From a virus (taxonomy: Duplodnaviria; Heunggongvirae; Uroviricota; Caudoviricetes): a stretch of 64,000 nucleotides of DNA. The stretch spans positions 329,787 through 393,786 of the IMG/VR virus record IMGVR_UViG_3300015214_000024; one strand, 5' to 3'. Both the position numbers and the translations under genes were made by a program. Within the stretch, counting starts at the first letter, position 1. Every line of letters begins with the position of its first letter. Below are positions 16,098-60,950 of the stretch, in pieces. The notes beneath the pieces were generated by a model. The model had not been told where the DNA came from. It ran no database searches and saw only the letters and a list, made by a program, of their open reading frames with translations.

Positions 16098-16153
16098 GAA
16101 TTTATCCTACGTGTAAATTTACCAACTATTTAGTCAGATCTTATAGGTGATAG

Positions 16154-16183
16154 AAAAACCCCGGAGGATTTTGTCCTCCGGGG
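16154..16183 (-). terminator. Rho-independent terminator
   Basis: ccccggagga-ttttg-tcctccgggg perfect 10-bp stem followed by T5 on minus strand. Confidence 0.85.
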
Positions 16184-16215
16184 CCGTATTCTTTTTCTAA
16201 AACTCTAATTAAAAA

Positions 16216-16644: not shown

Positions 16645-16743
16645 TTTGGAGTATCTCCTGTTTATATTAACTATTAGAAATCCAATCCTGCAGGATATGT
16701 TTTAGTGATTTCTTCTTATTATTTATGATTTTAGTGATAAGAA

Positions 16744-16905
16744 TTACTTTTTACCCTTTTTCTTTTTAGGTTTTGGCGGATTTTCACCATAAACTGAGCG
16801 TCTTATCACTTCGCCCGAGCCAAGCGGCATTGCCACCGAGGCAATAGCACCAGATGCCGTCGCGCCGGCAGACGCATTTTCCTGTATAATTTCATTTATT
16901 TTCAT
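16744..16905 (-). CDS. Small hypothetical protein (MKINEIIQENASAGATASG...)
   Basis: Capsid-targeting-like leader, Ala/Ser/Gly core, basic tail. Confidence 0.6.
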   Translation of the reverse strand: MKINEIIQENASAGATASGAIASVAMPLGSGEVIRRSVYGENPPKPKKKKGKK

Positions 16906-17563
16906 TTTTCTTTGGTCTCCCTGGGCCTCTTGATGTCTTATAAGCATCTTTATTATTGTCCAAATCAGGATCTTCCAATTTTGCCTTTTTAGCCACCGTT
17001 TCTAATATTGGCAATATATCTGCCTTACCAACATAAGAACGAAAGCTTTGTATTAATCGTGTAAAAACTAAAACCTTATCAGTTTCTGATTCAAATTCCC
17101 ACTCACCACACAGACGGCGGATAGATTTTAAAGTAGTATCACTGACCTTCAATTGATTTTCTGCGTATAATAAAAATCTGCGATCAAATTCAACATTTTG
17201 CTGGCCCTTGATAGCCTGGTTAACGAATGTACGAAGAGTTGGCATATTGAAGGTCAAAGACTGAATAAAATGTTTACTCTCTTCAGGGTCTTTAAATTTT
17301 ACTTGTTCAGCCGCTCTATCACTAAAAAGTAAATTGATTAAAACGTCCAAGTCATTACCCTTTAAAGATCCATCGGCCTGCAATCTACTGCCACCCAAAT
17401 AGTCAGCGATGGCTGATGCGCCATAAAATTCCGATTTCAATATCCTAATAGCACACAAGTAGGCAAAGAAGATATTTGCAAAATCCCTCGCAGTATATTT
17501 GCTTGTGCCAAAAATATTCTTATTCAAAATATTCGCTTCAGTGATTGAATTCAAGAATTCCAT
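16892..17563 (-). CDS. Hypothetical (probable virion) protein
   Basis: 223 aa; AGAGG RBS; leader MEFLNSITE. Confidence 0.55.
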   Translation of the reverse strand: MEFLNSITEANILNKNIFGTSKYTARDFANIFFAYLCAIRILKSEFYGASAIADYLGGSRLQADGSLKGNDLDVLINLLFSDRAAEQVKFKDPEESKHFIQSLTFNMPTLRTFVNQAIKGQQNVEFDRRFLLYAENQLKVSDTTLKSIRRLCGEWEFESETDKVLVFTRLIQSFRSYVGKADILPILETVAKKAKLEDPDLDNNKDAYKTSRGPGRPKKNENK

Positions 17564-43049: not shown

Positions 43050-43607
43050 TTATTTATCATCTTCTGGGTCAGTTTTTTCCTCAAAGTCAGCATCCTGAGT
43101 GTCACCGCCCATAATAGCTTTAAGTATATCGTTACGATGAGCTTTAATTCCTTCATTAACTGCATTTTCAACCAGGCCGGCTTGTATTTGGGCACGAGTC
43201 AATGCAACACTTAATTTAGCTCTATCATATTTGGCACTAACCTTTGAATCTGATGATTTATTAATTATATCCAAATATTGGGCAGCAACTTCAAATAAAC
43301 GAGCAGACTTTTCAGGAGGTACTGATTGCGCTACTGCAAAAATTTTATCAAATGCATCTTTAGCCTGGTCAGCGACACTGTCCGAAGTTTTAGTATGCTC
43401 AAAAACGACTTGGTCAAGCTCAGTCAAATCTTTATAAGCTTTATCCATAGGCGATGATTGAGTGTTTTCACTATAGTCAGTTAAATCAATTTCACTATTT
43501 TCAGAAACTTCAATATCAGATTGAGTTAAATTTTCGTGAGTTTCTTGATCAGCCATAGCTTCTTTTAAGGTTCTCATATTAAGACTTGTGCTAATACTAT
43601 TACTCAT
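43050..43607 (-). CDS. Terminase small subunit (gp16-like), putative
   Basis: Helical core ARLFEVAAQYL; size and position near terL and gp4. Confidence 0.6.
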   Translation of the reverse strand: MSNSISTSLNMRTLKEAMADQETHENLTQSDIEVSENSEIDLTDYSENTQSSPMDKAYKDLTELDQVVFEHTKTSDSVADQAKDAFDKIFAVAQSVPPEKSARLFEVAAQYLDIINKSSDSKVSAKYDRAKLSVALTRAQIQAGLVENAVNEGIKAHRNDILKAIMGGDTQDADFEEKTDPEDDK

Positions 43608-44059
43608 TATCGCTTCCTTGGCTTATATGTACCAGTTGCCTTATATAATTGATCTTCAGTTAAGATGACAAATTTACAACCGTGCTTTTGACACCACTGT
43701 TGGGCAGCGGCCCATTTCATTCTATTTAATGCAACTTGTAATTTATTTTGAATTCCTTTAGCCTTTTCTTGCAATGTTTGACTCATAGGCTTGATTTCTA
43801 TCAATTCAGTTTTTAATCCGCCGTTTTTATCCTGATATCTAACTAAAAAATCCGGAACGTAAACTGTTGTTTTTCTTTTGAAATGATTATAATATGGAAT
43901 TCTAATCGGCTCAGACGCCCAAGCAATTACGTCTGGATGAAAATCTAAATAGTGCATAAAGTTATATTCCCAGGAACTGCGCGCTATTGGATTTTTGTTT
44001 CCAATATATTTTTGCGGATTCTGAACTTCGTAAACACCTTTATAATAGTTACGAGCCAT
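43607..44059 (-). CDS. gp4: Head completion nuclease (T4 gp4 / TnsA-like)
   Basis: NPQKYIG, RSSWE, WASE, YVPDF, LIEIKP, KWAAA, FVILTE. Confidence 0.9.
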   Translation of the reverse strand: MARNYYKGVYEVQNPQKYIGNKNPIARSSWEYNFMHYLDFHPDVIAWASEPIRIPYYNHFKRKTTVYVPDFLVRYQDKNGGLKTELIEIKPMSQTLQEKAKGIQNKLQVALNRMKWAAAQQWCQKHGCKFVILTEDQLYKATGTYKPRKR

Positions 44060-44952: not shown

Positions 44953-46410
44953 TTATCCAAAAAGTCCCTTTAATACTTTAGCTGCTTTAACAGCCGTACC
45001 AACAGTTGGTGACAAGTTTGAAACAGTCTTCTCAGCTACGCCGAATACGGTCGATTGACTGACTAGTGCGTTGACCCCAGCCAGACCCTTTTGAGTGAAT
45101 TGGATTTCGCCATTAGGTTTAGTAATAATCATACTGTTGGATCTAAAACTATTTGCATCTATATCTGATGATTTTGTCGACAACTGCGAATATAATCCGG
45201 TGCCCATAACTTTAGAGGCCACATTTCCCATCTGTCCTGAATACAAACTACGACCATTATCAGAATATTGAGAATCTAATGGAAAAGCACCAGTTGTGGA
45301 TTGATTTTTATTCGTGCTGAAAACAACATTATTGTTAATAAGATCACTGAATGCATTAATACCGACGTTTAAGATTCCGCTTTTGGTACTTTTACTAGTG
45401 TTATTAGTCGTGACACTTGTTATAACTGAACGAAGAACTGAGTCTGCAATTTTACCAGTAGTAGTATTACCAAGCCCCAATGTATCACTTATTACGCTTG
45501 AGATTGAATCAGAAATTCCATTTTTCTGCAAAAAGGCATCCAAATATCCAGCAACCCGTTGGGTAGAAATACCAAGTGGTGGATTATTATAATCAAATTG
45601 AAACCCGAAATCAGTTGCTTCACTGGTGCTAATCTTAACAGGATCCATATTATAAGCGACATTTTCATATTCAAATGTTATAGTAACTTCAGTCAATTGG
45701 TCACTTGATCCAGCATAAGTTAATGGATTAGAATATTGGAAGGTACTAATCACTGGATTGAATAAGGTGATAGTAGTATAATAACCTCCAAAAAACTGGT
45801 AAATTATTATTTTTTCAAAATAATATTTTTCATCAGTACCAGGTATTGTCCTCATACCAAAACCACCAGTACCTGGATCATTAATCGCACTAGCCATTAA
45901 ATCCCAAAATACGTAGCTATCATTTGATATAACACCATCTTGAAAATAGTGAGCAAAGTAGCTTTGCCAAAATTTCAATAGCTTGCCAGCAATATCGTCA
46001 TAAAATGTTATACTAATAGGATTATGTGTCCTACCAGTGTAAATGACACGCTTTTTATTATATTGATTAACGACTTCAGTTTGGATTGAAGTATTTGGTC
46101 TTTCAACACTTTTCGCTTGGAAGTTAAATCCAGTTTTCGAACTTAGTTGAGATGCTGCATCAAATCCAGTACGTGTTGATGAGGCATTTAATGGGGTCAC
46201 AAATTTGACCATATACAGGAACCCTGGGCGCGGTGCTGATGCGGTGTGAAATGCATAATTTTCACTTCCTACACCTAGTAACCTGCTCGCAGTCGGGGCT
46301 GATCTATAAATCAACCCACTTGAACGGCCAGCGACCTCAGAAAGCAACGTATCAGCTACGTCACCTAGAAGATTCCCAGCAATATTTTTGAAAACGCCTA
46401 TACCAGCCAT
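44953..46410 (-). CDS. Tail-tube-fold baseplate/tube initiator protein (gp54/gp48-like)
   Basis: KSVERP...NQYNKKR...PISITFYDD...VTITFEYE tube fold; follows the tube gene. Confidence 0.7.
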   Translation of the reverse strand: MAGIGVFKNIAGNLLGDVADTLLSEVAGRSSGLIYRSAPTASRLLGVGSENYAFHTASAPRPGFLYMVKFVTPLNASSTRTGFDAASQLSSKTGFNFQAKSVERPNTSIQTEVVNQYNKKRVIYTGRTHNPISITFYDDIAGKLLKFWQSYFAHYFQDGVISNDSYVFWDLMASAINDPGTGGFGMRTIPGTDEKYYFEKIIIYQFFGGYYTTITLFNPVISTFQYSNPLTYAGSSDQLTEVTITFEYENVAYNMDPVKISTSEATDFGFQFDYNNPPLGISTQRVAGYLDAFLQKNGISDSISSVISDTLGLGNTTTGKIADSVLRSVITSVTTNNTSKSTKSGILNVGINAFSDLINNNVVFSTNKNQSTTGAFPLDSQYSDNGRSLYSGQMGNVASKVMGTGLYSQLSTKSSDIDANSFRSNSMIITKPNGEIQFTQKGLAGVNALVSQSTVFGVAEKTVSNLSPTVGTAVKAAKVLKGLFG

Positions 46411-46474
46411 AAAAAATCCAATATCATTTATATTAGCTATTTATCTGATTATTTTTAAGTTTTATATAAGAAAA

Positions 46475-46504
46475 TGGGTGGTAATCGTTTCCAATTACCA
46501 CCCA
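46475..46504 (-). terminator. Terminator after tail tube gene
   Basis: tgggtggtaat...attaccaccca stem with T-run on minus strand. Confidence 0.75.
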
Positions 46505-46536
46505 GATAAAATTACCACTTAATTTTCTAAAACCTA

Positions 46537-47136
46537 TTAGGCTCCAGAGAGGACGCCGCCAATACTTGTTAGAATTGGATTTGCAGTCATCAATTCTGTT
46601 GATGTTGCGTTATCGTAACGGATAGTTAAATCGATTGTTTGAACGCCGTTATTTTCAGCATAGTCTAAACCTTCGTTTTCATAGCTTTGGATCCAGCATC
46701 CTTCAAGAATCCACTGTTCCAAAACATTCACGTTACCGCCGTCCATAACTTCAACATACATATCAAACTTATAATTGACACCAGCAGCCGGACTTGTTTG
46801 TTCATAGTGGTTGTGTTGCTTTTGAAGCTGATATCCTACTAACTTTGAAACAGAGTTAGTGATATCGTCACGAAGCTTAACTGCAACAGTCTGCCAAGAA
46901 TGCTTACCAGCAACGTAAACTTTTGAAGTGTAAACGTCGAGAGTAACTTCTTCGTGCTGAAGCTTAGGCTTATCAGCAGTCATAACCTGTTGGGTGAAAT
47001 AAGATTGATCGCCAATCGGTCCGAAATTAATTGTGCGAATACGGAAGCGATATTTTAGCTTTGGCTGAAGGACACCCTTACGACCTTCTTGACCATCTGG
47101 TCCCATTGGAACGCCAAACTTTGTAAGTGTGGACAT
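46537..47136 (-). CDS. gp19: Tail tube protein (T4 gp19-like)
   Basis: PKLKYRFR, AGKHSW, LRDD, W.LEGCW, LTIRYD; AGGAG RBS; ATAAATA at 47177-47183. Confidence 0.85.
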   Translation of the reverse strand: MSTLTKFGVPMGPDGQEGRKGVLQPKLKYRFRIRTINFGPIGDQSYFTQQVMTADKPKLQHEEVTLDVYTSKVYVAGKHSWQTVAVKLRDDITNSVSKLVGYQLQKQHNHYEQTSPAAGVNYKFDMYVEVMDGGNVNVLEQWILEGCWIQSYENEGLDYAENNGVQTIDLTIRYDNATSTELMTANPILTSIGGVLSGA

Positions 47137-47226: not shown

Positions 47227-47892
47227 TTATGGTTGAGTTTCTTCCTCTTCAGGCGGAGGTGGCGGATCTTCAACAGTGATGTAAATACATTTGGTTTCAG
47301 CAGTTTGACCACGCAACGTAATAATTGTATAACTAAAAGCATCAGCGCCAGTGTAGCCCGGATTGGGTACGTAAATTATACTCTTGCGATCGTCAGACAT
47401 CCTAGCAAAACCATTATATGGTTGAGTGCATATTACCGGTTCACACCAAGTAGCCGCATACGTTTCCTCATCTGTCGGTGCCAAGGTTTCGCCACCAAAT
47501 ATATTATCGATGGTGATAATATACTCATCAGGAACAAACGGCTGTATAGTTTGATCACATATCACTTTGATTTCGGCAGCAACTGGTTGATTGAAAGTGA
47601 TTAGCTGATCTTCAATCTCATAAGTTAACTGTGGCGGGTTCAAGTGTGTCTCGCCAAAGTCTGTACTTCTGTTAATTATCCTTATACCATCTTTATAAAT
47701 CTCTACCATTTCAGCACTTGGTATTTTCCAAGGCACTTGTAATTGAGATGTCAATGCCATTTGATAGGTAAAAGATAGTTCACCGCGACTTAAAATCTGT
47801 TTAAATGTATCACTAGTTTGATTGACCGGTACTGTAATTTCCATATCATCAATAGGTGGAATTATTGTACGGCAATTATTAATATTAATCAT
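47227..47892 (-). CDS. Virion protein with Ig-like/cadherin-like domain
   Basis: TQPYNG...YVPNPGYTGADAFSYTI motif. Confidence 0.65.
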   Translation of the reverse strand: MININNCRTIIPPIDDMEITVPVNQTSDTFKQILSRGELSFTYQMALTSQLQVPWKIPSAEMVEIYKDGIRIINRSTDFGETHLNPPQLTYEIEDQLITFNQPVAAEIKVICDQTIQPFVPDEYIITIDNIFGGETLAPTDEETYAATWCEPVICTQPYNGFARMSDDRKSIIYVPNPGYTGADAFSYTIITLRGQTAETKCIYITVEDPPPPPEEEETQP

Positions 47893-49973
47893 TAGCCTCC
47901 TCCCAAATACCAAGCAATAGCTTTCAGCACTGGTTTAATTGGTACGTCGCCACACCAGACACTATTAGTATATAGTACGTTATAACTATAAGTTCCTTCA
48001 GGTTGTTGGTAAATTATAGTAATATCAGATGGATAAGCACTAGCTGCATCTTCTGCCAATTCGATGGTCGGATATCCGCCCTGACGAACATAATTTGTTG
48101 AATCGTAAATTACATTATTTTCAAATATAGCATTCAAATTAATAGTTTTTAAACTATCAATTGCATATTCATATGAATACAAAATATTAACCATTTGTGG
48201 TGCTGAATAACTTTGCATTATAGGTTGCGAATCATAAGCGATATTATTAGCTAGACCATAGAAACCAAAAGCAGTATTGACTACAAGATAGTTGCTTTGG
48301 ATCCACGGGGCATATGAAGAAAATAATTCAAATTCGTGATTATGCACTAATACTTCATACATCCATTCAGAACCATATGAATGAAAGTTTTTATTTGTGA
48401 AATCAGCCCAATATGTATCATTGTATAGGTAACGATTATAATTATCCATTACCCAATTGGTCATTATTTCTCGGTTTTCCCAATTAATCCAATATTGAGG
48501 GATCAAGCTAATAAATTTATCAGCTTCAACTTGATTATTTTGGAAATAAACATCAATCAGACGAGTATCTTCATATTGTGAAATTGAATAATAGGTACTA
48601 ACTACACGCCAATTCAATGGCGTGGCAATTTTACCTTCAATAGCATCAATTGGTTGAGATTCCACATAATTGTAACCGTGCTTACCAACTAATGAATCAA
48701 ACACATATCCATAAATGTAAGCTTCTATCTTCTGTTGGGCTGAGTTAGCATTTACTAAGCTATTATGTATATTGTTAAAGAATAGCGCCTTCAAACTTTC
48801 CACAGTCTCATAATAAGTCAATTTACTAATAAACAACGAAGTAGGAGCAGTCCCATATTTGAGTTCATTAGTTTGGTCTTTAAATATGCCAATTGGTGCA
48901 AATGCATATTTAATTTGAGCTGTTTGATCTCGGAAATCACTATCAGGTGCTTTAGAATTTTTCAAACTGGAAGACTGATCCGCAAAATCACCATTCGGAG
49001 CATCAGAATTATATATAGTTTCATTTGTGAACAGTCCAACTGGACTACCAGTATTGCCTACTTTAGATTGATCAACAAATACTGATTCGATATCGTTATC
49101 GCCGTCAGCAACCGCCTTATATTCAATCCATTGCCCTTCTTGGGTATTTCTGTAAATATACTCATCATATTTGATTGCATCTGACGGTCCCACCAATTGC
49201 CAGGTGCCGACTTCAGTTTCGCCAGTAAAAGTTGAATCTGTATAAATTAAATATGTATCGGAAAAAATATTATCAAGATATTTCTTTAAATATACTTGAT
49301 CGTCGTTTTGAACATTGATCGTCGACGAGAATGAATTACCATCAGATGAGAATTGCAATCCATCATATGAGTATAATGTAATTATTGTACTTTCTGACAA
49401 ACCAGAGATAGTAACTGGATATGAATATAGGTCTTGATTAGGCACTCCGTCATATGCATCACCAAAATCTAAATAATCAGGCAAATCGTCAAGTAATTTG
49501 ACGTCAACTAACATCTCCATACCGAGCCAATTTAAACTGATTTTCGGATCAGACGGGACAAGGAATTCAAGCCCCATCCAGCTAAAATTGGATTGAACTG
49601 CTGGCGCGATCGACATCAATAATTCGGTACCCATCCAAGATACATTAGCTATTGGATCACCGGTTACTGCGACATCAATATTTTGATTTGTCACATAAGC
49701 AATTGGTGTTGGCGCTTTTAGTACGACTTCTGTATTAACATTTGAAATTCTGGACGTTGAAGTGGTTGGTGATATTATTACTTCAGCAATTTCACTATGA
49801 ACTCGTCGATCTGTTGGCGGATTAAGTTTCGTGATAACTTGAACCGCGGCGAAACCGACCGTCGTGCCAGGGACAGGCTTCAACAAAACTTCAGCACCAA
49901 CAAAGCCAACTTTTGGTCTTTGTGGTTCTGTTATTGCTACTTCAATTGACGTAAAGCCGACATTAGAGGTCAT
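47892..49973 (-). CDS. Repeat-rich virion scaffold/fibre protein
   Basis: 693 aa; nine N-terminal ~17-aa strand-like repeats; internal APxxxFxDQ repeats. Confidence 0.6.
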   Translation of the reverse strand: MTSNVGFTSIEVAITEPQRPKVGFVGAEVLLKPVPGTTVGFAAVQVITKLNPPTDRRVHSEIAEVIISPTTSTSRISNVNTEVVLKAPTPIAYVTNQNIDVAVTGDPIANVSWMGTELLMSIAPAVQSNFSWMGLEFLVPSDPKISLNWLGMEMLVDVKLLDDLPDYLDFGDAYDGVPNQDLYSYPVTISGLSESTIITLYSYDGLQFSSDGNSFSSTINVQNDDQVYLKKYLDNIFSDTYLIYTDSTFTGETEVGTWQLVGPSDAIKYDEYIYRNTQEGQWIEYKAVADGDNDIESVFVDQSKVGNTGSPVGLFTNETIYNSDAPNGDFADQSSSLKNSKAPDSDFRDQTAQIKYAFAPIGIFKDQTNELKYGTAPTSLFISKLTYYETVESLKALFFNNIHNSLVNANSAQQKIEAYIYGYVFDSLVGKHGYNYVESQPIDAIEGKIATPLNWRVVSTYYSISQYEDTRLIDVYFQNNQVEADKFISLIPQYWINWENREIMTNWVMDNYNRYLYNDTYWADFTNKNFHSYGSEWMYEVLVHNHEFELFSSYAPWIQSNYLVVNTAFGFYGLANNIAYDSQPIMQSYSAPQMVNILYSYEYAIDSLKTINLNAIFENNVIYDSTNYVRQGGYPTIELAEDAASAYPSDITIIYQQPEGTYSYNVLYTNSVWCGDVPIKPVLKAIAWYLGGG

Positions 49974-51061
49974 TAGCTACTCCTCTTAATGCCAAGTTGC
50001 ATATTTTGAACATCAGCTAAATTCCAAGCAGTGCTAGTTGATGGATTTGTTGTCATTATGGATGATGGTCTAGTTACTGATGATACTCTGCTGGCTGATA
50101 GAGAAGCTGTTGCCACCACTGTTTCAGTAGTATTGTTTTTCATTTTTAGTTCAACGCTGGTTGTTCCCAATGGAGATCCGGCGGCTTGCATATAAGGCAA
50201 AACCCCTAATACTTGAGTGTTGCCATCAATTCTATTAATTTGTGTTATATCGTAGTAATCAGCATCATTTACATTATTAGCCGTCACGTAAGTTTGACTA
50301 GTTCCAATAATTTGATCATTCACTACTGCAAAATTGTCAGCGCCATCAGACGGCAACCAATTCTTTTGAGCCGTATCAGACACGGGAACGACTGGCACCA
50401 TATAAGTTAAGCCCAAACGCTCGCCGGTGGTTACATAAAAATTGTCATAATTTTGAATCGCACCAGATCCAGAAACCCAGCTAGTGTTGCCGCGGCCAAT
50501 AGATAAGCTATCAATATTTTGGTATGAAACTGTTGAACTCAATGCCTGAACGTTTGATCTATTCAAAACTAATTGCCCATTTAAGTATAAATTAAATGTC
50601 ATCGTTTGTCCATTAGTAGTTACCTGAAATTCAATATAATTCCACGTACCCGTAGTCAAAGTAGCTGTTCCTGAATATGCTACTTGTCCTTTAACAAATA
50701 AAACGTTACTTGAAGTATATAGTTGTATCACATCATTACTGGCAGATGATGCAGACGAATTAAAAAATGTTATAAGATTTGCTGACCCAGCATTGGTCAT
50801 AACGTGGAAACCTGCACAAATACTTGTAGTAGGTGCAAAATTAATCATAAGACGATTATTCGAACTGGTACTATTAGAAAAACTTAAAAACTGGCCAGGA
50901 GGTGTGCCAGGCATCATTATACCTGGTGATCCTAAACTAAGAAAGCTAAAAGTCGATCCGCCGCCGCCAATATAACGGTCATCCAAGCACATAGATGTCT
51001 TTAGTGCATCAGAAGCTGAATCAGCGTATGCTTCAAATCCATCAGTAAAAATAATTGCCAT
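49973..51061 (-). CDS. Lectin-like (ConA/LamG-fold) virion protein, array member 6
   Basis: MAIIFTDGFE; WNYIE, YLNG, DNFYV...GERLG, PVSD..KNW, NP.T..AW. Confidence 0.7.
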   Translation of the reverse strand: MAIIFTDGFEAYADSASDALKTSMCLDDRYIGGGGSTFSFLSLGSPGIMMPGTPPGQFLSFSNSTSSNNRLMINFAPTTSICAGFHVMTNAGSANLITFFNSSASSASNDVIQLYTSSNVLFVKGQVAYSGTATLTTGTWNYIEFQVTTNGQTMTFNLYLNGQLVLNRSNVQALSSTVSYQNIDSLSIGRGNTSWVSGSGAIQNYDNFYVTTGERLGLTYMVPVVPVSDTAQKNWLPSDGADNFAVVNDQIIGTSQTYVTANNVNDADYYDITQINRIDGNTQVLGVLPYMQAAGSPLGTTSVELKMKNNTTETVVATASLSASRVSSVTRPSSIMTTNPSTSTAWNLADVQNMQLGIKRSS

Positions 51062-51179
51062 TAGTTTTTCCTTAACGTTCTGAATATTTATTTTAATTGC
51101 AAGGACAAAGAAAATAGCAATTTTCCTAAGCTATCAAATATATACCCACATTAATTGAATTTATCACTTTAAACTATGA

Positions 51180-52958
51180 TTAGGAATATGGCGCGGAAGG
51201 TACTGTGAAACTTGAACCAGTGTATCGAGCAACACTCTTAGTAACTCGAATTTCATCTATAGCGCCATACCAGCCAGTTGTACCTCTACCTGATGCATAA
51301 ATCCACATTGGCTGGGTTGTTTGGTAGAGGGCGCCTGGTAATGTAGCACTATTAACTAATGATCCATTCAGATAAGATCGAACCACATTACTATCGTCTC
51401 TCGTAAGTGCGACGTGTGCCCAAGTACCAGTTAAGCTTGATTTATCAATACCGGTATAAAGTGAACTGAGGCTTGATCCGAATCCCAAATTAAAAATAAG
51501 TACGCCTACTGAATTAACTTGGATTTCGTAACCAAAATTAGAAGTATTGTCAGATCTATTACTGATAATATATCCGTTATTACTTATAGACACTGCATTA
51601 ATCCAAAATTCAAACGTAAACGCACCAGGAAAAGCCCATACTGATTGATTTAGCGGTGTTATCGTATAATAATAAATTCCTGACGTTTTATTTAGATAAT
51701 ACGAATATGATGAATTAACGGGTGACGAATTTTGAACCGTAATGGCGGCGTTAGAACGCGCGACAGAGCCAGTATTGCCACTAATGTCAATATTGGTTGA
51801 TAACACATTATTATTATCCCAATTTGCCATCAAAATAACATTTGACCAGTTAGGGTCATCAGTTCTAGCCAGCCCTAATTGGGTCGATGCTATGTCTGAA
51901 TACGTCCAAGGTGATAAGGTATTGGGATTTGAAGTGATTACTGATCGTCGATAAAGAACAGTATTTGATCCAAAAGGTGCCATTGATAGTGTTGACCCAG
52001 ATTCTGTCGAGCCAACTTTAATATTAGACTGTATTTTTTCAGTATTACCAGCCGTAGATCTTGCAAACATATATGGCTGGATTCCTGAGATCGTACATCC
52101 TTGATCTTTTAAACTTAAACCAGCAACATTATAATAATCCTTAACTCCAGCGTTCGGGGCAGAAACTAAAGTTGTCATACCAGGATTAGTTGTTTCATTG
52201 ACCATTGCATAATTATCAGCGCCTGCAGAAGGTGTCCATTCTTTCTGCACATCCGACGATGGCAATAAAGGACGAATTTCTGTAGGACCAAGGCGCTCGC
52301 CAGTTGTCATATAAATGTGGTCAAACTGTTGCTGTCGATTGTTATATCGAGCATACGTTGATTTGCCATAGAATATCTGTTCAATACCAAAAACACCATT
52401 TCCACTACCATACCAGCTTAGAGTTGGCAAGTCGATAACTAATACATTATCCTGATAAACTTGAACAGCAGCAGATGAACCACTTATATTGATCATAACT
52501 TCAACGTGGATCCAAGTATTAATTGGAAATGTAACTGCGGAAGGGTTGCCAACCATTGATGCGCTAAGTGTATCAGACGTTGATATGATTGATAAATTGG
52601 AAGATCCATTAACAATTAATTCAATGTATGATTGAGTTGATCCAGTATTTTGAAATCTTATCACACTAGCAGTAGTATTACTGCATTGATAATACATACC
52701 AAAACAAAGTTGAGTCATAGGTGATGTATGGTATGTTGCTATATCATATGTCATAGCATTAAGTGAGGTATTAGTCGTTGACGAGCGCAAGCATCCGCCA
52801 CGATTCTCAAAGCCTGGTTGAATTGTCAAATAACTCGATGTTACTTGGGACGCTGTAGAAAACAGACTGTATCTTTTACCTAAGTGTAGACCAGTAGCAT
52901 TGTCAGTAGGTGCAGTGCCATAATAATAATCAAAACCTTCTGTATAAATTAATGCCAT
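51180..52958 (-). CDS. Lectin-like virion protein, array member 5, extra C-terminal LamG domain
   Basis: MALIYTEGFD; C-terminal DPNWSNV...FTFEFW...WAHVA...IDEIRVTKSVARY. Confidence 0.72.
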   Translation of the reverse strand: MALIYTEGFDYYYGTAPTDNATGLHLGKRYSLFSTASQVTSSYLTIQPGFENRGGCLRSSTTNTSLNAMTYDIATYHTSPMTQLCFGMYYQCSNTTASVIRFQNTGSTQSYIELIVNGSSNLSIISTSDTLSASMVGNPSAVTFPINTWIHVEVMINISGSSAAVQVYQDNVLVIDLPTLSWYGSGNGVFGIEQIFYGKSTYARYNNRQQQFDHIYMTTGERLGPTEIRPLLPSSDVQKEWTPSAGADNYAMVNETTNPGMTTLVSAPNAGVKDYYNVAGLSLKDQGCTISGIQPYMFARSTAGNTEKIQSNIKVGSTESGSTLSMAPFGSNTVLYRRSVITSNPNTLSPWTYSDIASTQLGLARTDDPNWSNVILMANWDNNNVLSTNIDISGNTGSVARSNAAITVQNSSPVNSSYSYYLNKTSGIYYYTITPLNQSVWAFPGAFTFEFWINAVSISNNGYIISNRSDNTSNFGYEIQVNSVGVLIFNLGFGSSLSSLYTGIDKSSLTGTWAHVALTRDDSNVVRSYLNGSLVNSATLPGALYQTTQPMWIYASGRGTTGWYGAIDEIRVTKSVARYTGSSFTVPSAPYS

Positions 52959-52970
52959 ATCTACAGCCCT

Positions 52971-54653
52971 TTAAATTGCCCAAAACAATTGGTTTGCCAT
53001 TGTAAATTTTCTAATGCCACCATAAAATTGCCTGGCTGGGTCTTTAGAATTATCACCCCCGATGGCGAAGCCGTTGGTGGAATCACGAATTTGTCCACCG
53101 TTTAATGCAATATCCAAAACTTGACTATCGTTTAAATATCCACGCAATCGACCAGAATAGAACATAAAACCAACCCGGTACCAAGTATTTGTTTGGATGT
53201 TCGCAATAGCTAACAAAGTGCCGCCGACTTGATTTCCTCCAAGGTTATCAGAGGCTGAATAAACTCCCAAACCAGCAAAAGATCCTTGACTACTATTTCC
53301 TAAGAATATTGACCATTCAGGCCACTGCGGCGCACCAGAATTTCCGCCAACTGTCGCAATTAGCTGATTATTGGCTACAGTAGTGGTATAAAATTCAAAT
53401 TGAACTGAATATGGCATCGTTACGTGCCAAAACGGAACATCAGTATATCTGATGTTTTGTGATCCATTAAATATTAATGCATTACCAGATACTGTCGGGG
53501 CCGTATCGCCCGCGATAATCGTTGATCCACTCACAATGGATGGATAGTTTCCATTATCATCAATATAAAAACCGCTATTAGTCAATAGGAAATTTTCGTG
53601 TCTCCTAATACCAAGCTCACTTGAATTAAAACCACTAGCAGTCCACGGTGAAGATGTGGCTGGATCATTTCTAAGGTGTTCAGTAGTCGCTATTAGGGGG
53701 ATACTCACTCCAGGCAGCATTGGTATTGATGAAGTCGTTTCTGTTGAGGATGATTTCAACTGAATTGAAGTTCTAGCAGTTGAACTAGCATCACTAGATG
53801 TTGAATAGGACAATCCTTGAACTGAAATTATACTGTCATTAGCATTCACTAATGATAAATCACTGATGGTATAATAATCAGTATCTAAGTCATTTTTTAA
53901 TAAAACATTTGTATCCATTGATGGTGCGGAAATATCATTTACCATATTATAATTGGTTGTTCCGTTGAGAGGCACACCATCTTTTTGTGAGGTATCACTA
54001 TCAGGGACCAATGTACTAATATTAATTGGTCCCAAAACTTCACCATCACTTAAATAAAAATTATCCATACGATAGCTACCACTATAGCCCAATTGGTATT
54101 TGCCAATAATGAAAGAAGACCAATAGTATGGAGTAGCTGTAAAACCAGTTCCTGAAAAGGTATATGCTAGTGTACCATTCAAATATACACTGACTAGAAT
54201 TTGAGATCCACTGGTTATTTCAGCGTGTAGTTCAAGATACCACCAATTTCCAGTAGTAATTGAAAATGAGCTTTGCTGGGCAGCACTACCGTAAGTTGCC
54301 GAAATCCTCGTATTCAGCCTTCCTGACGAATTGACCGACAATAATATATATGCGCCATTTGGTGCTCGAATATTAAAGACATCTATGTCAGTACCAAATG
54401 ATGGAAAATAGACGTGAGCGCCCATTGTCACTGATGTTAAAGTATTACCAATAGGTACTGGAATACTATTAACAGATGATGACGATACGGAATATACTAG
54501 TGATTTACCACCAGCATATCCAGTTGTATAACTAAAGTAGTTCGCCCAATTTACTGTAACCCCAGGATAGCGAGTTGAAATGTTAATTAACTCATTATTA
54601 TTGCCTGAAGTTTCATTATAGTAATCAAACCCATCTGAAAAAAGTATAGTCAT
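52971..54653 (-). CDS. Lectin-like virion protein, array member 4, extra C-terminal domain
   Basis: MTILFSDGFD; C-domain closely resembles member 3 (NTWYRxGFM, xLFWxI). Confidence 0.72.
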   Translation of the reverse strand: MTILFSDGFDYYNETSGNNNELINISTRYPGVTVNWANYFSYTTGYAGGKSLVYSVSSSSVNSIPVPIGNTLTSVTMGAHVYFPSFGTDIDVFNIRAPNGAYILLSVNSSGRLNTRISATYGSAAQQSSFSITTGNWWYLELHAEITSGSQILVSVYLNGTLAYTFSGTGFTATPYYWSSFIIGKYQLGYSGSYRMDNFYLSDGEVLGPINISTLVPDSDTSQKDGVPLNGTTNYNMVNDISAPSMDTNVLLKNDLDTDYYTISDLSLVNANDSIISVQGLSYSTSSDASSTARTSIQLKSSSTETTSSIPMLPGVSIPLIATTEHLRNDPATSSPWTASGFNSSELGIRRHENFLLTNSGFYIDDNGNYPSIVSGSTIIAGDTAPTVSGNALIFNGSQNIRYTDVPFWHVTMPYSVQFEFYTTTVANNQLIATVGGNSGAPQWPEWSIFLGNSSQGSFAGLGVYSASDNLGGNQVGGTLLAIANIQTNTWYRVGFMFYSGRLRGYLNDSQVLDIALNGGQIRDSTNGFAIGGDNSKDPARQFYGGIRKFTMANQLFWAI

Positions 54654-54690
54654 ATTAGATCCGTTTTTATTTTATTTAATGCCAAAATTA

Positions 54691-56376
54691 TCAAATTGGC
54701 CAAAAAAGTGATTTTGCAACACTTAAATTTCTTATACCGCCTTGAAGGAATACTGTTGGATAGCCAGCATTATCTCCGACTATTGCTAACCCATTTGGTG
54801 AATTCCAAGGTTGGACCAAGCTATCATCAAATCGTTGTGCCCCATTGAAATAACCACGCACCCTAAGTGATCCGTTGTTATATACCATAAAGCCAATCCT
54901 ATACCAAGTATTCAACTGAACTGTACCGGCTGGCACTAATGTTCGAGTTACTTGGGCGGCGGCGCTGTTAGCTGATGCCGTAGCAAGTATGATCTGTCCG
55001 TTATTATACACTTGAACTACAAATTCAGGAAAACCGATACTAAATCCTTGACCGATATTAAACAACATTGGACTATTAGCTAATGAAGAGACGTAAAATT
55101 CCATCTCCATAGAATAAGGAGCAGTGACGTGAAAATCGCTCGAATCTGTATATCGTATCTGCTCAGTACCAGTAAAAATTAAAGTATCGCCCGATACTGC
55201 CGGTGCAGCTATGCCGCTTGTAATCCGAGTAGAAGTTGAGCTATTTGTAATTGATCCATTTGTGATTGAAAATTTTACATTTTCAAGCAAATTCATAACT
55301 ACGCCGGACTGAATTCCATTAATATCTGAAGATGACCACGCACTGCTCGTAAAAGGATTGGCTTCGTAAATATTGCTTGGAAAGAATGATGAATTTGCCT
55401 GGCCTTCGTATGGTGTGAAAGATGGTTGATTTACTGTATTGGCGCCAACTTTTAATGTTTGGAATATGTTTGTTTGCCCGAAAGAGCTTTTATATCCAAC
55501 TGTATTTGACTTAACTGCCTTAATTGGCCCAAGCACAGACGTGCCGCTTGACGGCAAGTCAGAAACATTAAACATATCAGTATTATTTGATGATGTGCCA
55601 ATATTCGCCGTCTGAGTGGTTGAATATGCATTGCTATTAATTTGTGTATAATGAGCTGTTCCACTTGATGGAGTCCAGCCTAACGGTGTAGCATCAGAAG
55701 TTGGTCTAAGGGTTACGATATTCATTTCGTCACTTCGGGTTAAAGTGTTGTTTACGTAAAAATCATCAATCAAAACAGTGCGCAATGTGGTATCCCAGGA
55801 ACCGTTTGTTATTATCGCTGAATTATAAAATGTATTTGAAGAATATGTAGTATCAGCATTAGATACTGATGCAACCATTACACCATCAATATAAAATCTC
55901 GCGATGCCGTTCGTTGTTCCTGCCCTTGCCTCAAGCTCATAATAATGCCAAGCTGTTGGGTCATAATTTGCTATCGGCTTACCAGTAAAAAGCGTAGTAC
56001 CACTTCCATTTTTAACTACTGGATAGTAAAATAATCCATATGAATTATAATAAACATAAACCGACAAGGCTACATTTGAGTTAAAGGCTAAACTAATTAA
56101 TGAATTAACATTTGACGTGGTTAATGACGGATTCGTATGTCTAATGGCTACCCCAACGGAAGTGGTAGCTATATTATTTGGGTAGGTATATTTAAAAGTA
56201 GTATTTTGAATAACAGATGATGATGTTATATACCCAGAAGAAGTTATGCATTGGCCACCATATCGGCCAGTTGTAAATCCATAAGAATTAGTACCATTAC
56301 CACCCAATGTCCAATTTTGCGTGAACAGCGAGTTGGTAGCATAAGAGTTGAATCCATCAAAATAAATTAAAGCCAT
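54691..56376 (-). CDS. Lectin-like virion protein, array member 3, extra C-terminal domain
   Basis: MALIYFDGFN; start placed after GAGG RBS. Confidence 0.72.
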   Translation of the reverse strand: MALIYFDGFNSYATNSLFTQNWTLGGNGTNSYGFTTGRYGGQCITSSGYITSSSVIQNTTFKYTYPNNIATTSVGVAIRHTNPSLTTSNVNSLISLAFNSNVALSVYVYYNSYGLFYYPVVKNGSGTTLFTGKPIANYDPTAWHYYELEARAGTTNGIARFYIDGVMVASVSNADTTYSSNTFYNSAIITNGSWDTTLRTVLIDDFYVNNTLTRSDEMNIVTLRPTSDATPLGWTPSSGTAHYTQINSNAYSTTQTANIGTSSNNTDMFNVSDLPSSGTSVLGPIKAVKSNTVGYKSSFGQTNIFQTLKVGANTVNQPSFTPYEGQANSSFFPSNIYEANPFTSSAWSSSDINGIQSGVVMNLLENVKFSITNGSITNSSTSTRITSGIAAPAVSGDTLIFTGTEQIRYTDSSDFHVTAPYSMEMEFYVSSLANSPMLFNIGQGFSIGFPEFVVQVYNNGQIILATASANSAAAQVTRTLVPAGTVQLNTWYRIGFMVYNNGSLRVRGYFNGAQRFDDSLVQPWNSPNGLAIVGDNAGYPTVFLQGGIRNLSVAKSLFWPI

Positions 56377-56386
56377 ATCATCCTCA

Positions 56387-57436
56387 TCAGCTTGACCTAA
56401 TACCAATTTGCATATTATTCACACCACTTGTAGTCCAAGCTGTCGAAGTTGCCGGGTCTGTTTCTGATATAATGCTTGGTAGCACTATTAATGTATTTTC
56501 ATACAATGACTGACTTGTTCCGTTCACTTCAGTGGTATTCGATTTTAAAGTCAAATTCGCCCCAGCTGGACCAAAAGTTGACTTGCTTCCTGCGCCATAA
56601 ATCCCAACAGCTAAAATATTGCCAGTGATAGCAGTCACTGAAGAAATATCTTGAATATCATAATAATCTTTATCACCAGTATTAGCTGTTTGAACATACG
56701 TATTGTCTGCCGAGCTCATCAAGTCATTAACAACCGCATAATTGTCTGATCCGGATGATGCCGTCCACTGTTTTTGAGCGGTATCAGCATTTGGTTTTAA
56801 TCCGGCAATGTGTAATTCCCCCAACCTAGCTGCCGTGTTGGTAATATAAAAATCATCATAATATAAATCGGGATTAAAACCAGATCCAAATGGGGGACTT
56901 AGACGAACAGAATCAATAGCAATAATGTTAGTGGTCGATTTCACTGGAACACTGCTTGTAGAATACAAAACCTGACCATTAAAATAAAAATTAATACTAC
57001 CAGAAGTTAAGCTTGTTACGACTTCCAATTCAAAATAATTCCAAGCAGTTAAATCAAAGATTTTAGGCATTGTAACTGTAGCTACTGCACCATTGTTACT
57101 GACAACTATTTGACTTTCACTCATACCAACATAAGCAATAACTGTTGAGCCATTCATTAAGGTTATGACTGGATTCACTGTTCCAGATGTTGAGTTAGTT
57201 AGTCTTATAGCTGCACCAACAGAAATGTTATTCAATGTTGATGTTAGTGTTCTAATTAATCCAGTTGACCCTGGTTGAGTGATATAGCCACTACCAAGTG
57301 ACAAACAGCGGCCGTCATAGCGACCAGATGCTAAAACTGAAACTCCTCCAGTAGCAGTAGCCTGTGAGTAATATTGTGGCAATATAGTATTGTCAAAATA
57401 TCTTTCAAAACCGTCAAACCAAACAATCGCCATCAT
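56387..57436 (-). CDS. Lectin-like virion protein, array member 2
   Basis: MAIVWFDGFE; shared array motifs. Confidence 0.7.
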   Translation of the reverse strand: MMAIVWFDGFERYFDNTILPQYYSQATATGGVSVLASGRYDGRCLSLGSGYITQPGSTGLIRTLTSTLNNISVGAAIRLTNSTSGTVNPVITLMNGSTVIAYVGMSESQIVVSNNGAVATVTMPKIFDLTAWNYFELEVVTSLTSGSINFYFNGQVLYSTSSVPVKSTTNIIAIDSVRLSPPFGSGFNPDLYYDDFYITNTAARLGELHIAGLKPNADTAQKQWTASSGSDNYAVVNDLMSSADNTYVQTANTGDKDYYDIQDISSVTAITGNILAVGIYGAGSKSTFGPAGANLTLKSNTTEVNGTSQSLYENTLIVLPSIISETDPATSTAWTTSGVNNMQIGIRSS

Positions 57437-57445
57437 TTTTCTCCC

Positions 57446-58486
57446 TTAGAGTATTTCTGGGCCCATTTTTAAATTATTAATGTCTGTTGATTTCCAAGCC
57501 AGGCCAGTATCTGGATTTACCGTTAAGATAGGATCAGAATAACGATAAAAATCTGTCTGTGACATTAATAAGTTGTTAGTAGTTCCATTAACTGTCGTGC
57601 TACCGACAGTTAAATTTACTCTAACATCAATTGTGGCAGCGTCGTCCTTTCTGGCAGTATATACTGGTTGAATACCGTGTATTTTCAGAGGATTAAACGA
57701 CATATCATCAATATCATATATATCCTTCCATCCCTGCGTACCGCCATAAATGAAGGACGAATTGTCCACAGTCAGACCATTTACCGCATCATAATTGCCA
57801 GCCAACCCAGTCGGATTGGTTTGGAAATTCTTCTGAGCAGTATCTGCATTTGGAGACAATACTATTACTCTACTTTCACCCAACTTGGTTGCCGTATTAT
57901 TAATATATACATCATCAATATACCAAGTAGCTAATGAATTGGTATAGAACTTAATAAAATCACCACCTGTCAACGTGGTAGTATCTAGTGAATTAGAAAC
58001 CGCTTGCGTGTCATTCACATATACAGATAATCTACCACTTGCAGAATTTAGCACGGCCTCGAATTCAATATAAACCCAGGTATTGAGCGGTATGACACCA
58101 TTTGATGATGTTGCGACAACTGTTGACGGTCCTGATTTGATCTGCAATGCTCCATCAGTAGTTACATCTAACCTAAATTGAACCAAGCCGCCCGTTGAGT
58201 TAAAAATTTCAAGAATTGTATTTTGTTGTGTATAAGCTACTATTTTAGCAGCAAATCCGACACTCAAAGAAGTGAGTGTCGAGCCAATCTGTGTTTGTGC
58301 AAATGAACTGGACGCTGAAATATTGCTATTCATATACATTGCTTGGCTATTTGGATACCGGCCAACACCGGTTGTTATCAAGGTAGATCCGGCATTAGAT
58401 ATCGTCCATCGACTTGTTAATGGAAGTGCTGATCCAGAGCCAGAGGCTGTATAATAATCAAACCCCTCAATAAAAACAGCAGTCAT
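57446..58486 (-). CDS. Lectin-like virion protein, array member 1
   Basis: MTAVFIEGFD; shared array motifs. Confidence 0.7.
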   Translation of the reverse strand: MTAVFIEGFDYYTASGSGSALPLTSRWTISNAGSTLITTGVGRYPNSQAMYMNSNISASSSFAQTQIGSTLTSLSVGFAAKIVAYTQQNTILEIFNSTGGLVQFRLDVTTDGALQIKSGPSTVVATSSNGVIPLNTWVYIEFEAVLNSASGRLSVYVNDTQAVSNSLDTTTLTGGDFIKFYTNSLATWYIDDVYINNTATKLGESRVIVLSPNADTAQKNFQTNPTGLAGNYDAVNGLTVDNSSFIYGGTQGWKDIYDIDDMSFNPLKIHGIQPVYTARKDDAATIDVRVNLTVGSTTVNGTTNNLLMSQTDFYRYSDPILTVNPDTGLAWKSTDINNLKMGPEIL

Positions 58487-58490
58487 AGAA

Positions 58491-58549
58491 TTGCCCTCTT
58501 AATTAATCTACCAGTGTCTTCTACTGATATTTATTAATTAAGAGGGCAA
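58491..58549 (-). promoter_or_regulatory. 17-bp perfect inverted repeat covering the RBS, with an embedded late promoter
   Basis: ttgccctcttaattaat / attaattaagagggcaa; tatttat at 58528-58534. Confidence 0.7.
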
Positions 58550-58563
58550 CAAAAAATTAATTA

Positions 58564-59856
58564 TTATGGGGTAATACCACCACCCAAATTCAATACAACA
58601 ATTCTAACTCCAGTATTATTTGAACCGCTTGATTTCAAAGCTAAATATTCTCTATTTTGCGATTCACCATAAACCGTCAATGGAACGATAGTTCCGTTTG
58701 AAACAACGTCAGCTGAAGTAAAACCGATCATATCAAGCTCATATGAATAGCAGAATCGACTTGTATTCAGACGAGCTGGGAACGTGACAATATATTTTTG
58801 ATCTTCCGACAAAGAAACTTGGTTCTGTGCGTTGATAATCGAGTCGGAATCTTCCTGATTAATCTCGGCTCTGCGTCGGGCATAGTTTGGTCTTAGCAAC
58901 CCAGTAACTGGGTCAGTTCCTTGCTCCACATTAGCAGTAGTATCTTCTGGATCATTAATATCGTCAGTGATATTATATAATGAATGGGCAATTCCTGCCG
59001 GCTTCAAAACATCAGCTTCACGAACAACCGTTTGGAAAAAATATGTTTGTTGTGGGAAATCCTGATTTGCACCATTGTATGCTACACACCAAACTGGTGC
59101 TTTACCATCAACAACTGTAGCACCAGTTTCACGATCTACCGGACGTTGAATTAGTACCCAATTAAAGTTGTAAGAAAATACGTCACTATCAGCATCTTCC
59201 CAAATACCGAACCATACACCGCGATCAGTAATTACCAATCTATATCGCAATGGAAAAGCTGTTCCAGAACCTGCGCCAATTCGAGTGGTTCGGTTAATAA
59301 TACCAAATTTAGGGTCATCTTTAACTACTCGCTGTTCGTAAGTTGAGCTTGCAGTCATAATCGCCTCAGTAAATGGAGTCCAAACACCACTAGCGGTAAT
59401 GTACTGCTGAACATTGTCTGTATTTGTTCCTGAACTAGGGGCAGTAACTGGATTATATACATTGGTACCCATCTTAAAATTAACATTACCAATAACATCG
59501 GTTGGCATCATCTTTTGCTGTTCTTGGGAGGAAGATGAAGCTTTTTTAACTAAGCCGACTTCATAAAGAAGTGGTAATGACCCATCATCAGCCAATGTTG
59601 CAGATGTACCAACGTAGCAAAAAGCATTTTGTATTTTCTGAACGTCAAACATAACTCTCCAAGGCTGTGTGGCTGCCAGTGGATCAACGTCAGATGATGC
59701 TTCTAACAAAACTTTATATGGAGCCGTAGCGGTTCCAGAATCAAACGTTAACGGATAAACTAAATCGAATCCATTCGCAACCATATCATCAACAAGTGAT
59801 GCAATTAATGCAGTTGCTGATGGAAATCCGCCACGTTCTACAATAAATCCAGCCAT
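58564..59856 (-). CDS. Virion structural protein (paralogue of next gene)
   Basis: Shares VDPLAATQPWR, FNWxLxQRPVDRxTG, GKAPVWCV, ELDMI with 59892..60950. Confidence 0.65.
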   Translation of the reverse strand: MAGFIVERGGFPSATALIASLVDDMVANGFDLVYPLTFDSGTATAPYKVLLEASSDVDPLAATQPWRVMFDVQKIQNAFCYVGTSATLADDGSLPLLYEVGLVKKASSSSQEQQKMMPTDVIGNVNFKMGTNVYNPVTAPSSGTNTDNVQQYITASGVWTPFTEAIMTASSTYEQRVVKDDPKFGIINRTTRIGAGSGTAFPLRYRLVITDRGVWFGIWEDADSDVFSYNFNWVLIQRPVDRETGATVVDGKAPVWCVAYNGANQDFPQQTYFFQTVVREADVLKPAGIAHSLYNITDDINDPEDTTANVEQGTDPVTGLLRPNYARRRAEINQEDSDSIINAQNQVSLSEDQKYIVTFPARLNTSRFCYSYELDMIGFTSADVVSNGTIVPLTVYGESQNREYLALKSSGSNNTGVRIVVLNLGGGITP

Positions 59857-59891
59857 TTTATACTCCTAATTATGTTCTTTTAATCTTTTGA

Positions 59892-60950
59892 TTATATTGC
59901 ATCAATACCGCCACCTTCGTGCAATACCAATACGCGCATACCAGTATTTCCAGTATAGTTTGCCTGAAGTGCTTTATATTTTCTTGGTGTTGGATTTGGT
60001 GTCGGGGTGGCACCATCATTTTCACCATAAACTTCAATGTCAATTATTGATTCTTGTGACACCACGTCTGCTGATGTTGTAGCAATCATATCAAGCTCGT
60101 GTGAGTAACGATAGCGTGACGAATTAAGTCTTGAAGGGAAATTAATTACATATTTGCCATCTTCAGTTAATCTAACTTGTTGATATGGATTGATAATCGC
60201 TTCTGAATCATCTTGATTTTGTGTTGCAGATCGGCGAGTCAATGTTGTATCAACCATCTTTGGTGCTTCTGGACGAAGAATATCTGATTCCCTAACCACA
60301 AATTGATAAATGTTATTTGTGATACCAGTAGTATCAGCAGTGCTATTCACACACCAAACTGGTGCTTTACCTGTTATAACTACTTCACCAGTATCTCTAT
60401 CAACTGGTCTTTGAACTAATATCCAATTAAAGTGTGCTGAAGTTTCCGCAGTAACAGCGTCTTCCCAAGTTCCGAGGAAAAATCCACGTGGCGAAATAGA
60501 CAATCTATAAGACATTGGGTAGGAATTGCCATCATCACCAACACGAGTACTGCGGTTAATGAAACCTTGCGAAAGTGATGAAGAAACAATATTTCCACCA
60601 GTAGCAATAGCGCCAACTGCACCAATAATATCAACTGGAGCGTTTGATGCATTCACTTCCTTAGCAAATGAACCATCATCTGGCAACTGGGTCGGAGTGG
60701 CGACAATAACACTAATTAAATCTTTTTCTAAAGCCTCAAAACGAATTCTCCAAGGCTGTGTAGCTGCTAGTGGATCAACATCAACACTAGCTTCTAATGT
60801 AACACTAAAAGCTTCGCCAGCAGTTTGAGGGTCAAACGCTGATACTGGATATTTCTGTGTAAATCCATTATCAATCATTTGGCCGACGGCATCAGCAATC
60901 AATTCCGCGGCTGTCAAAAAATTGTTTTTTTCAAATATATAGCCAGTCAT
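59892..60950 (-). CDS. Virion structural protein (paralogue of previous gene)
   Basis: Same motifs; ATAAATA at 60990-60996. Confidence 0.65.
   Translation of the reverse strand: MTGYIFEKNNFLTAAELIADAVGQMIDNGFTQKYPVSAFDPQTAGEAFSVTLEASVDVDPLAATQPWRIRFEALEKDLISVIVATPTQLPDDGSFAKEVNASNAPVDIIGAVGAIATGGNIVSSSLSQGFINRSTRVGDDGNSYPMSYRLSISPRGFFLGTWEDAVTAETSAHFNWILVQRPVDRDTGEVVITGKAPVWCVNSTADTTGITNNIYQFVVRESDILRPEAPKMVDTTLTRRSATQNQDDSEAIINPYQQVRLTEDGKYVINFPSRLNSSRYRYSHELDMIATTSADVVSQESIIDIEVYGENDGATPTPNPTPRKYKALQANYTGNTGMRVLVLHEGGGIDAI

Follow-up and report, generated by a model that had tools for sequence, protein, structure and literature searches.

Six tandem genes for diverged concanavalin A (ConA)-like proteins, followed by a gene for a 693-residue protein that opens with nine short repeats, lie among tail-type genes of an uncultured jumbo phage. 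They lie in a stretch of 64,000 nucleotides (positions 329,787 to 393,786 of IMG/VR record IMGVR_UViG_3300015214_000024; hereafter the window), which is part of a 465-kb contig binned within a 4.1-Mb assembly. All seven open reading frames (ORFs) are on the minus strand, exactly where an initial annotation, made from the letters of the window, had placed them. We favour, with moderate confidence, the reading that the genes encode a host-recognition fibre built from several subunits on the rope-and-bead principle, in which the repeat-bearing protein would be the rope, or scaffold, and the ConA-like paralogues the beads. Docking of beads on a rope by beta-sheet augmentation is already known from phages GP4, VP1 and A1002. 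What is new here, and shown at the level of sequence comparison, is the coupling of this bead family with this type of repeat across many phages.

Six ConA-like paralogues and the protein encoded after them

The six paralogues all begin with M-x-x-(I/V)-x-x-(D/E)-G-F, and their common two-domain core ends in (N/D)P-x-T-x-x-x-W...G, with pairwise identities of 20-43% among them. Five of the six match the family phrog_2448 (E = 1e-18 to 8e-32) over about 330 of its 335 profile positions. Paralogue 3 has no PHROG match and aligns throughout with the other five; this alignment is its real evidence, since the match that it gives, like all six, to a hidden Markov model (HMM) built from the six paralogues is circular in its case. 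A TTG start listed for paralogue 3 at position 56406 is probably spurious. Paralogues 3, 4 and 5 carry a C-terminal extension. Two of these extensions pass the Pfam cut-off for Laminin_G_3 (PF13385, 27.6 bits), and the third, that of paralogue 3, has no Pfam match and is 43% identical to the extension of paralogue 4. The initial description of the array as six tandem, diverged, two-domain proteins with shared start and end motifs, three of which bear an extra lectin-like domain at the C-terminus, is therefore correct. No further copy of the paralogue was found in the 4.1-Mb assembly.

One paralogue of the six, the 349-aa paralogue 2, was modelled with AlphaFold2 (AF2). The prediction, made from 51 family sequences, is confident (predicted local distance difference test, pLDDT, 88; predicted template modelling score, pTM, 0.89), and residues 1-210 form a complete two-sheet ConA-like jelly roll in the model, in agreement with the fold assigned at first from the letters. 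VIA-align matched it to the glucuronan lyase 2zzj of polysaccharide lyase family 20 (PL20) with a Z score of 18.7 and a root-mean-square deviation of 2.7 A over 193 residues, and to Cip1 (3zyp) with a Z score of 18.4. Lower matches comprise alginate lyases (PL14/PL36), enzymes of glycoside hydrolase family 16 (GH16), calreticulin, the carbohydrate-binding module (CBM) of the phage J-1 Dit protein and a baseplate protein of phage Douge, all of which denote likeness at the level of the fold only. The whole two-domain model reaches template modelling (TM) scores of 0.8-0.9 with many phage proteins, including a "virion structural protein" of phage AchV4. Tail-cluster proteins of AchV4 were detected by liquid chromatography-tandem mass spectrometry (PMC7996906), which shows that a homologue of the paralogue family is present in the AchV4 virion. 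Judging from the modelled fold, the paralogues may bind glycans. The N-terminus of the paralogue is the first strand of the jelly roll, and no Pfam or PHROG match to a T4 gp10-like adaptor domain was found there, no dedicated fold comparison having been made.

The completeness of the jelly roll bears on how the paralogues could engage the repeats. The initial annotation had proposed that each repeat is a donor strand on which one array subunit docks. Taken strictly, as in chaperone-usher pili, this would mean an incomplete paralogue fold filled by a specific repeat, one repeat per paralogue. Besides this analogy, the subtypes into which the repeats fall hint at specificity. In the confident model, however, residues 1-210 align end to end with whole ConA-like domains, which makes a missing-strand mechanism unlikely, and the counts of repeats and paralogues, given below, are not one-to-one. 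We therefore reject strict donor-strand complementation, which seems to us very improbable. The modelled jelly roll would argue against complementation of a missing strand, not against augmentation at an edge strand, and by analogy with known fibres it is plausible that a repeat strand docks on a paralogue by beta-augmentation.

The fold also raises the question of whether the ConA-like proteins stay with the repeats at all. The closest structures are enzymes with a long cleft (the PL20 glucuronan lyase, Cip1, the PL14/PL36 alginate lyases) and the genes are tightly coupled, as might be expected if the paralogues acted on the repeat region without remaining bound, either as assembly chaperones or as modifying or processing enzymes. 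Against this, the homologue in AchV4 has been reported to be a structural protein of the virion, and six diverged copies, three of them with lectin-type heads, suit surface display better; we regard such a transient role as unlikely.

The gene for the 693-aa protein is translationally coupled to the array, its ATG overlapping the stop codon of paralogue 6 (TAATG), with a Shine-Dalgarno sequence, AAGAGGAG, just upstream. Its product carries nine N-terminal units with periods of 17-19 aa between residues 5 and 156. As first described, the units fall into three subtypes of three, with one shade of difference: units 1-3 and 7-9 form clear subtypes (BLOSUM62 scores of 23-27 and 33-39, respectively), and units 4-6 a looser group (8-17). 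No tandem repeat was detected at the DNA level, and the units are therefore old. The scaffold family is small, with 27 matches among 1.84 billion representatives. Four close homologues come from Logan assemblies, and scans of IMG/VR, GenBank phages, JGI metagenomes, GTDB genomes and 51 genomes from the family of the binned host gave no relative. The repeat layout is kept position by position in seven full-length relatives, six with nine units and one with eight.

Further along the scaffold lies a second set of repeats, AP-x-(S/G)-x-F-x-(D/N)Q-x-x-x-(I/L)-K, which is unrelated to the first and varies in copy number among the homologues. The C-terminal domain (..YQQPEGT.SY..) always ends the protein at W-(L/Y)-x-G-G-G, which reads W-Y-L-G-G-G in the scaffold. 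The same domain, with the GGG end, is shared by 17 or more further proteins, which range from 650 to 2370 aa; the proteins with this domain are P0001-P0013, P0015-P0019, P0022, P0025 and P0030.

Recurrence of the paralogue-repeat pair in other phages

The paralogue family has 378 relatives in IMG/VR, and 79 of its loci, each with one to five paralogues, were fetched for comparison. The gene adjoining the paralogue or paralogues often contains tandem units of 17-20 aa with the core R-V-T-Q-x-x-V-E-V-L. When ORFs were scanned with a position-specific scoring matrix (PSSM), at least three units were detected in 35 of about 5200 real ORFs versus one in shuffled ORFs, and at least two N-terminal units in 27 of the 75 genes located directly downstream of paralogues versus 4 of 2210 control ORFs. 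Other loci have the units in the middle or at the C-terminus of the neighbouring gene's product, and in a large set of similar high-GC loci the units are degenerate and missed by the PSSM. Seven of the ten repeat partners tested at other loci match phrog_13560, which, like phrog_2448, is annotated as "unknown function". Apparent fusions of paralogue and repeats in a single chain were rejected: in high-GC contigs, ORFs are spuriously prolonged upstream, the true starts always having the form M-x-x-hydrophobic-x-x-(D/E)-G-F.

Array proteins and repeats adjoin each other across very different phages, which strongly supports a functional partnership between them. The repeats themselves are a portable module, since they are found on unrelated bodies (the hub PF09931, a LamG domain combined with a hub, a phrog_1082 tail protein and bodies of unknown type) and as stand-alone, repeat-only proteins of 80-142 aa beside paralogue genes. 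In a 595-kb uncultured phage (L003, LR756511), two tandem paralogues (14712-17392) lie among apparently non-structural genes, with a divergent 80-aa protein made of four repeats directly beside them.

The repeats might instead build a homo-oligomeric shaft of their own, such as a trimeric beta-spiral or beta-helix, with the ConA-like proteins attached elsewhere as receptor-binding or depolymerase subunits and co-encoded only as distal-tail genes. Repeats of 15-20 aa with a beta-strand and Pro/Gly turns are typical of fibre shafts, and those of adenovirus and reovirus are composed of such short beta-strand repeats. Moreover, the number of repeats does not track that of paralogues, and hubs are trimeric in solved baseplates of the gene transfer agent (GTA) type. 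These hubs also provide a comparison that bears on the shaft. Among 80 loci fetched by the GTA-type hub body alone, the counts were made on those with at least 1.2 kb of upstream sequence. A paralogue gene was present at all 31 hubs with at least two N-terminal repeat units, and in nearly all of them it ends 0-4 nt before the hub start. Of 31 hubs without detected repeats, 24 had no paralogue gene; among the 24 are 20 bare hubs, 265-300 aa long and extended by no more than 20 residues. At the remaining seven loci a paralogue is present with fewer than two units detected, either because the PSSM under-detects degenerate units that are visible (as in L134) or because the start of the hub HMM match shortened the stretch scanned. 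The association of repeats with the paralogue at hubs is strong (Fisher p = 5e-11, kinship being ignored). A shaft would not need a paralogue, yet hubs bear repeats only where a paralogue gene is present (31 of 31, against none of the 24 lacking both). The occurrence of repeat-only proteins beside paralogue genes and the identity of the motif across unrelated bodies likewise speak against a shaft, to which we leave a minor, though appreciable, share of the probability.

The solved hub of roseophage R4C begins with its attachment domain at residue 1 (PMC10276861). From this hub without N-terminal extension and from the hub counts, we conclude that the repeats and the ConA-like gene are gained together. 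A class of hubs of 560-590 aa (L107-L127 and others) has an N-terminal LamG-like domain, two to five repeats and the hub body, with a separate paralogue gene directly upstream.

The same layout is found at the end of the tail module in several Casjensviridae and in one other cultured phage. In phage Chi (L174; KM458633, 4671-11067), gp32-35 belong to the paralogue family (E = 7e-14 to 5e-43 with the family HMM), and gp36, of 709 aa, has about six N-terminal x-x-G-E-(A/V)-L units; all of gp32-36 are annotated as hypothetical. SAP012 encodes four paralogues (ORF42-39) and ORF38 with about five units. JC01 has gp30-33 as paralogues (four or five in all) and gp35 with about six units of a variant type. 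Tetraselmis viridis virus S20 has one paralogue, TV32, followed by TV31, a protein composed of LamG, repeats and hub. No literature on Chi gp32-36 was found, within an incomplete coverage of the papers on Chi and YSD1 tail structure. YSD1_29, the Chi-type long fibre, was considered as a repeat protein and rejected; its position and its description as BH2P point to a gpJ-like protein.

A putative rope-and-bead fibre

In the rope-and-bead fibre that we favour, the C-terminal body of the 693-aa protein would hold it in the tail, and the nine N-terminal repeats would extend outward as the rope. Every repeat would form one docking site, with a strand of about ten residues and then a Pro/Gly-rich linker. 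As beads, the six ConA-like paralogues would occupy these sites, a strand of the rope most likely being added to one beta-sheet of the bead. Three of the beads would expose an additional LamG head, and which bead sits on which stretch of the rope would depend on the three repeat subtypes. We infer the physical docking, as well as its geometry, the stoichiometry and the position on the virion.

The closest precedent is found in podophages. The nozzle-rope protein of A1002, gp39, bears 11 dimers of fibre protein; gp40 makes up seven of them and gp41 four, in separate parts of the rope, and every dimer builds an augmented beta-sheet with a fibre-dock region of the rope, whose other end is built into the nozzle (PMC13730344). 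In GP4 (PDB 8JOU) the rope has a gene of its own and carries five dimers, and VP1 is similar (PMC13730344). As in these chain-like fibres, where the gene for a rope with serial sites adjoins the bead gene or genes (gp39, gp40 and gp41 in A1002), the nine repeats described here are coupled to their putative beads, and the two bead species on separate rope stretches of A1002 parallel the repeat subtypes. By contrast, there are six bead species here, and the carrier is a jumbo myophage, with siphophage relatives, rather than a podophage. The rope also differs, being a recognisable sequence repeat of 17-19 aa here, whereas the word "repeat" is absent from the A1002 paper (PMC13730344).

Several observations weigh against the rope-and-bead reading. 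The number of repeats does not equal that of paralogues: loci with a single paralogue have 2-6 units, and the counts of paralogues and units are 5 and 3 in L075, 4 and 8 in L052, 4 and about 6 in Chi, and 6 and 9 in the window, so that a rule of one repeat per paralogue fails. The ranks of the two numbers are correlated (rho 0.58, a value that ignores phylogeny and is inflated by loci with undetected repeats). Moreover, no repeat partner could be recognised for the family members at Lu11 gp248/249, L016 and L035. For the 693-aa protein, the AF2 model made from eight sequences has a pLDDT of 29 and speaks neither for nor against self-folding of the repeats; the ESM Atlas model is equally uninformative. 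The scaffold has no PHROG match at E <= 0.01 and hence none to phrog_13560, and its link to the RVTQ-type repeats rests on the PSSM and on intermediate sequences. Seeded by the nine units, the PSSM converges on RVTQQYVEVL, and six of the nine keep scores of at least 8 bits with it; intermediate motifs occur in P0031 and in SAP012 ORF38, P0031 connecting the W-M-G subtype with the RVTQ..EVL type. No true match in the PDB, solved rope and bead proteins included, came from profiles built on the paralogues, on domain 2 alone, on the scaffold or on the repeats, nor from the SAP012 proteins. Finally, the beads are ConA-like proteins of 350-590 aa, versus small beta-rich proteins of 140-171 aa in GP4, VP1 and A1002. 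Because of the lack of a sequence match in the PDB and of the far larger beads, we do not count the module as a demonstrated member of the chain-like-fibre family; by analogy, it may work like such a fibre. Matches to tetratricopeptide repeats in the PDB searches were discarded as due to a chance DP-x-x-x-x-W motif.

Other systems resemble the putative fibre in part. In branched complexes (CBA120 TSP1-4, G7C gp63.1/gp66, RaK2, phiKp24), several host-binding proteins are likewise gathered on one virion structure and recognition is widened. These complexes attach via folded N-terminal adaptor domains of trimeric tailspikes. In the present proposal the socket would instead be a repeat, short and linear, and ConA-like proteins take the place of beta-helix spikes as heads. 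The CBMs of siphophage baseplates, such as that of the evolved Dit of Lactobacillus phage J-1 (5ly8, Z 15.3) and that of mycobacteriophage Douge (8zdo, Z 14.9), are also ConA/CBM jelly rolls on the distal tail, although they are inserted domains or subunits with a folded interface, not separate proteins paired with peptide repeats. The cellulosome scaffoldin, with its cohesin-dockerin pairs, is comparable in its logic: diverse carbohydrate-active subunits are mounted on the repeated sites of one scaffold. Cohesins, however, are folded domains of about 150 aa in a cellular system and have no homology to the phage module.

We also put forward, tentatively, a broader proposal. The pair may be a portable plug-and-socket device, in which a tag of about 17 aa, of the R-V-T-Q-x-x-V-E-V-L type, placed on any tail protein would recruit one family of ConA-like heads, the subtypes of the tag setting where each head is placed. 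The nine-site, six-head fibre would then be a programmed heteropolymer, and Chi gp32-gp36 an overlooked part of the adsorption apparatus.

Genomic setting, promoter-like motifs and implications

The coordinates of the array and of its neighbours are collected in the table below. Read downstream, the order is two phrog_12249 genes, the six paralogues, the 693-aa protein, a 228-aa immunoglobulin (Ig)-domain protein and two tail-tube-type genes. The 228-aa protein is possibly part of the same unit as the scaffold. The synteny of the two phrog_12249 genes with the paralogues is the same in phage Lu11, in which gp246 and gp247 are followed by the family members gp248 and gp249.

Features of the array region, in window coordinates
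Feature	Position	Strand	Basis
Two phrog_12249 genes (label tail sheath), directly upstream of array	58564..60950	-	PHROG match
AATAAATA motif resembling a T4-type late promoter, shortly before paralogue 1	58528..58535	-	Motif scan
Paralogue 1, 346 aa, ConA-like N-domain and beta-rich domain 2	57446..58486	-	phrog_2448, E 2.5e-30
Paralogue 2, 349 aa, modelled by AF2	56387..57436	-	phrog_2448, E 8e-32
Paralogue 3, 561 aa, core and C-terminal LamG-like domain	54691..56376	-	Alignment with other five; no own PHROG/Pfam match
Paralogue 4, 560 aa, core and Laminin_G_3	52971..54653	-	PF13385, 42.2 bits; phrog_2448, E 1.3e-18
Paralogue 5, 592 aa, core and Laminin_G_3	51180..52958	-	PF13385, 74.3 bits; phrog_2448, E 6e-25
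AATAAATA motif in 118-nt gap before paralogue 6	51085..51092	-	Motif scan
Paralogue 6, 362 aa, translationally coupled to scaffold gene	49973..51061	-	phrog_2448, E 4e-22; TAATG overlap
693-aa repeat-bearing protein (putative rope/scaffold)	47892..49973	-	ORF, small homologue family
Nine 17-19-aa repeats, scaffold residues 5-156, three subtypes of three	49506..49961	-	Translation, PSSM
Second repeat set, about four units of about 17 aa, scaffold residues about 318-400	48774..49022	-	Homologue alignment
Conserved C-terminal domain of scaffold, about 100 aa	47895..48191	-	Shared with other proteins
228-aa protein, bacterial Ig domain Big_9, directly downstream of scaffold	47227..47913	-	PF17963, 24.6 bits (cut-off 23.6)
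Two tail-tube-type genes (199 and 485 aa), next in downstream direction	44953..47136	-	phrog_4542, E 4e-53; weak T4 gp19 match

The "tail sheath" label of phrog_12249 may be unreliable, because the two genes of the window have no Pfam match and because five places in phage NCTB (L002), which also has a separate gene annotated as an FI-type sheath, match them by tblastn. Annotations also conflict for a 150-aa protein at 43607-44059 on the minus strand, assigned to "head closure" by PHROG (E = 5e-43) versus the N-terminal domain of a TnsA-like endonuclease by Pfam (79 bits).

The motif AATAAATA occurs 11 times in the window (at 3058, 4900, 10380, 20772, 24240, 38306, 44923, 47177, 51085, 58528 and 60990). 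The total is not above chance (11 versus a shuffle mean of 11.9). Compared with the ORF lists, all copies are on the minus strand, which is the coding strand, and each is intergenic, shortly upstream of a gene start. This bias in strand and position suggests that AATAAATA is a T4-like late promoter. The copies in the array region would then split the array into two late transcription units, one with paralogues 1-5 and the other with paralogue 6, the scaffold and the 228-aa Ig protein. Matches resembling sigma-70 promoters were no more frequent than in shuffles, and terminator-like matches were only about 1.8 standard deviations above them.

If the repeats are docking tags, they would represent a widespread way to hang varied binding heads on phage tails. 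Siphophages, GTA-like elements and jumbo myophages all have the pair, and the rope-and-bead fibre is known structurally, so far, only in three podophages. Two PHROG families now annotated as "unknown function" and five uncharacterised genes of phage Chi would thereby acquire a role, and the determinants of host range in metagenomic phage genomes would be easier to read.

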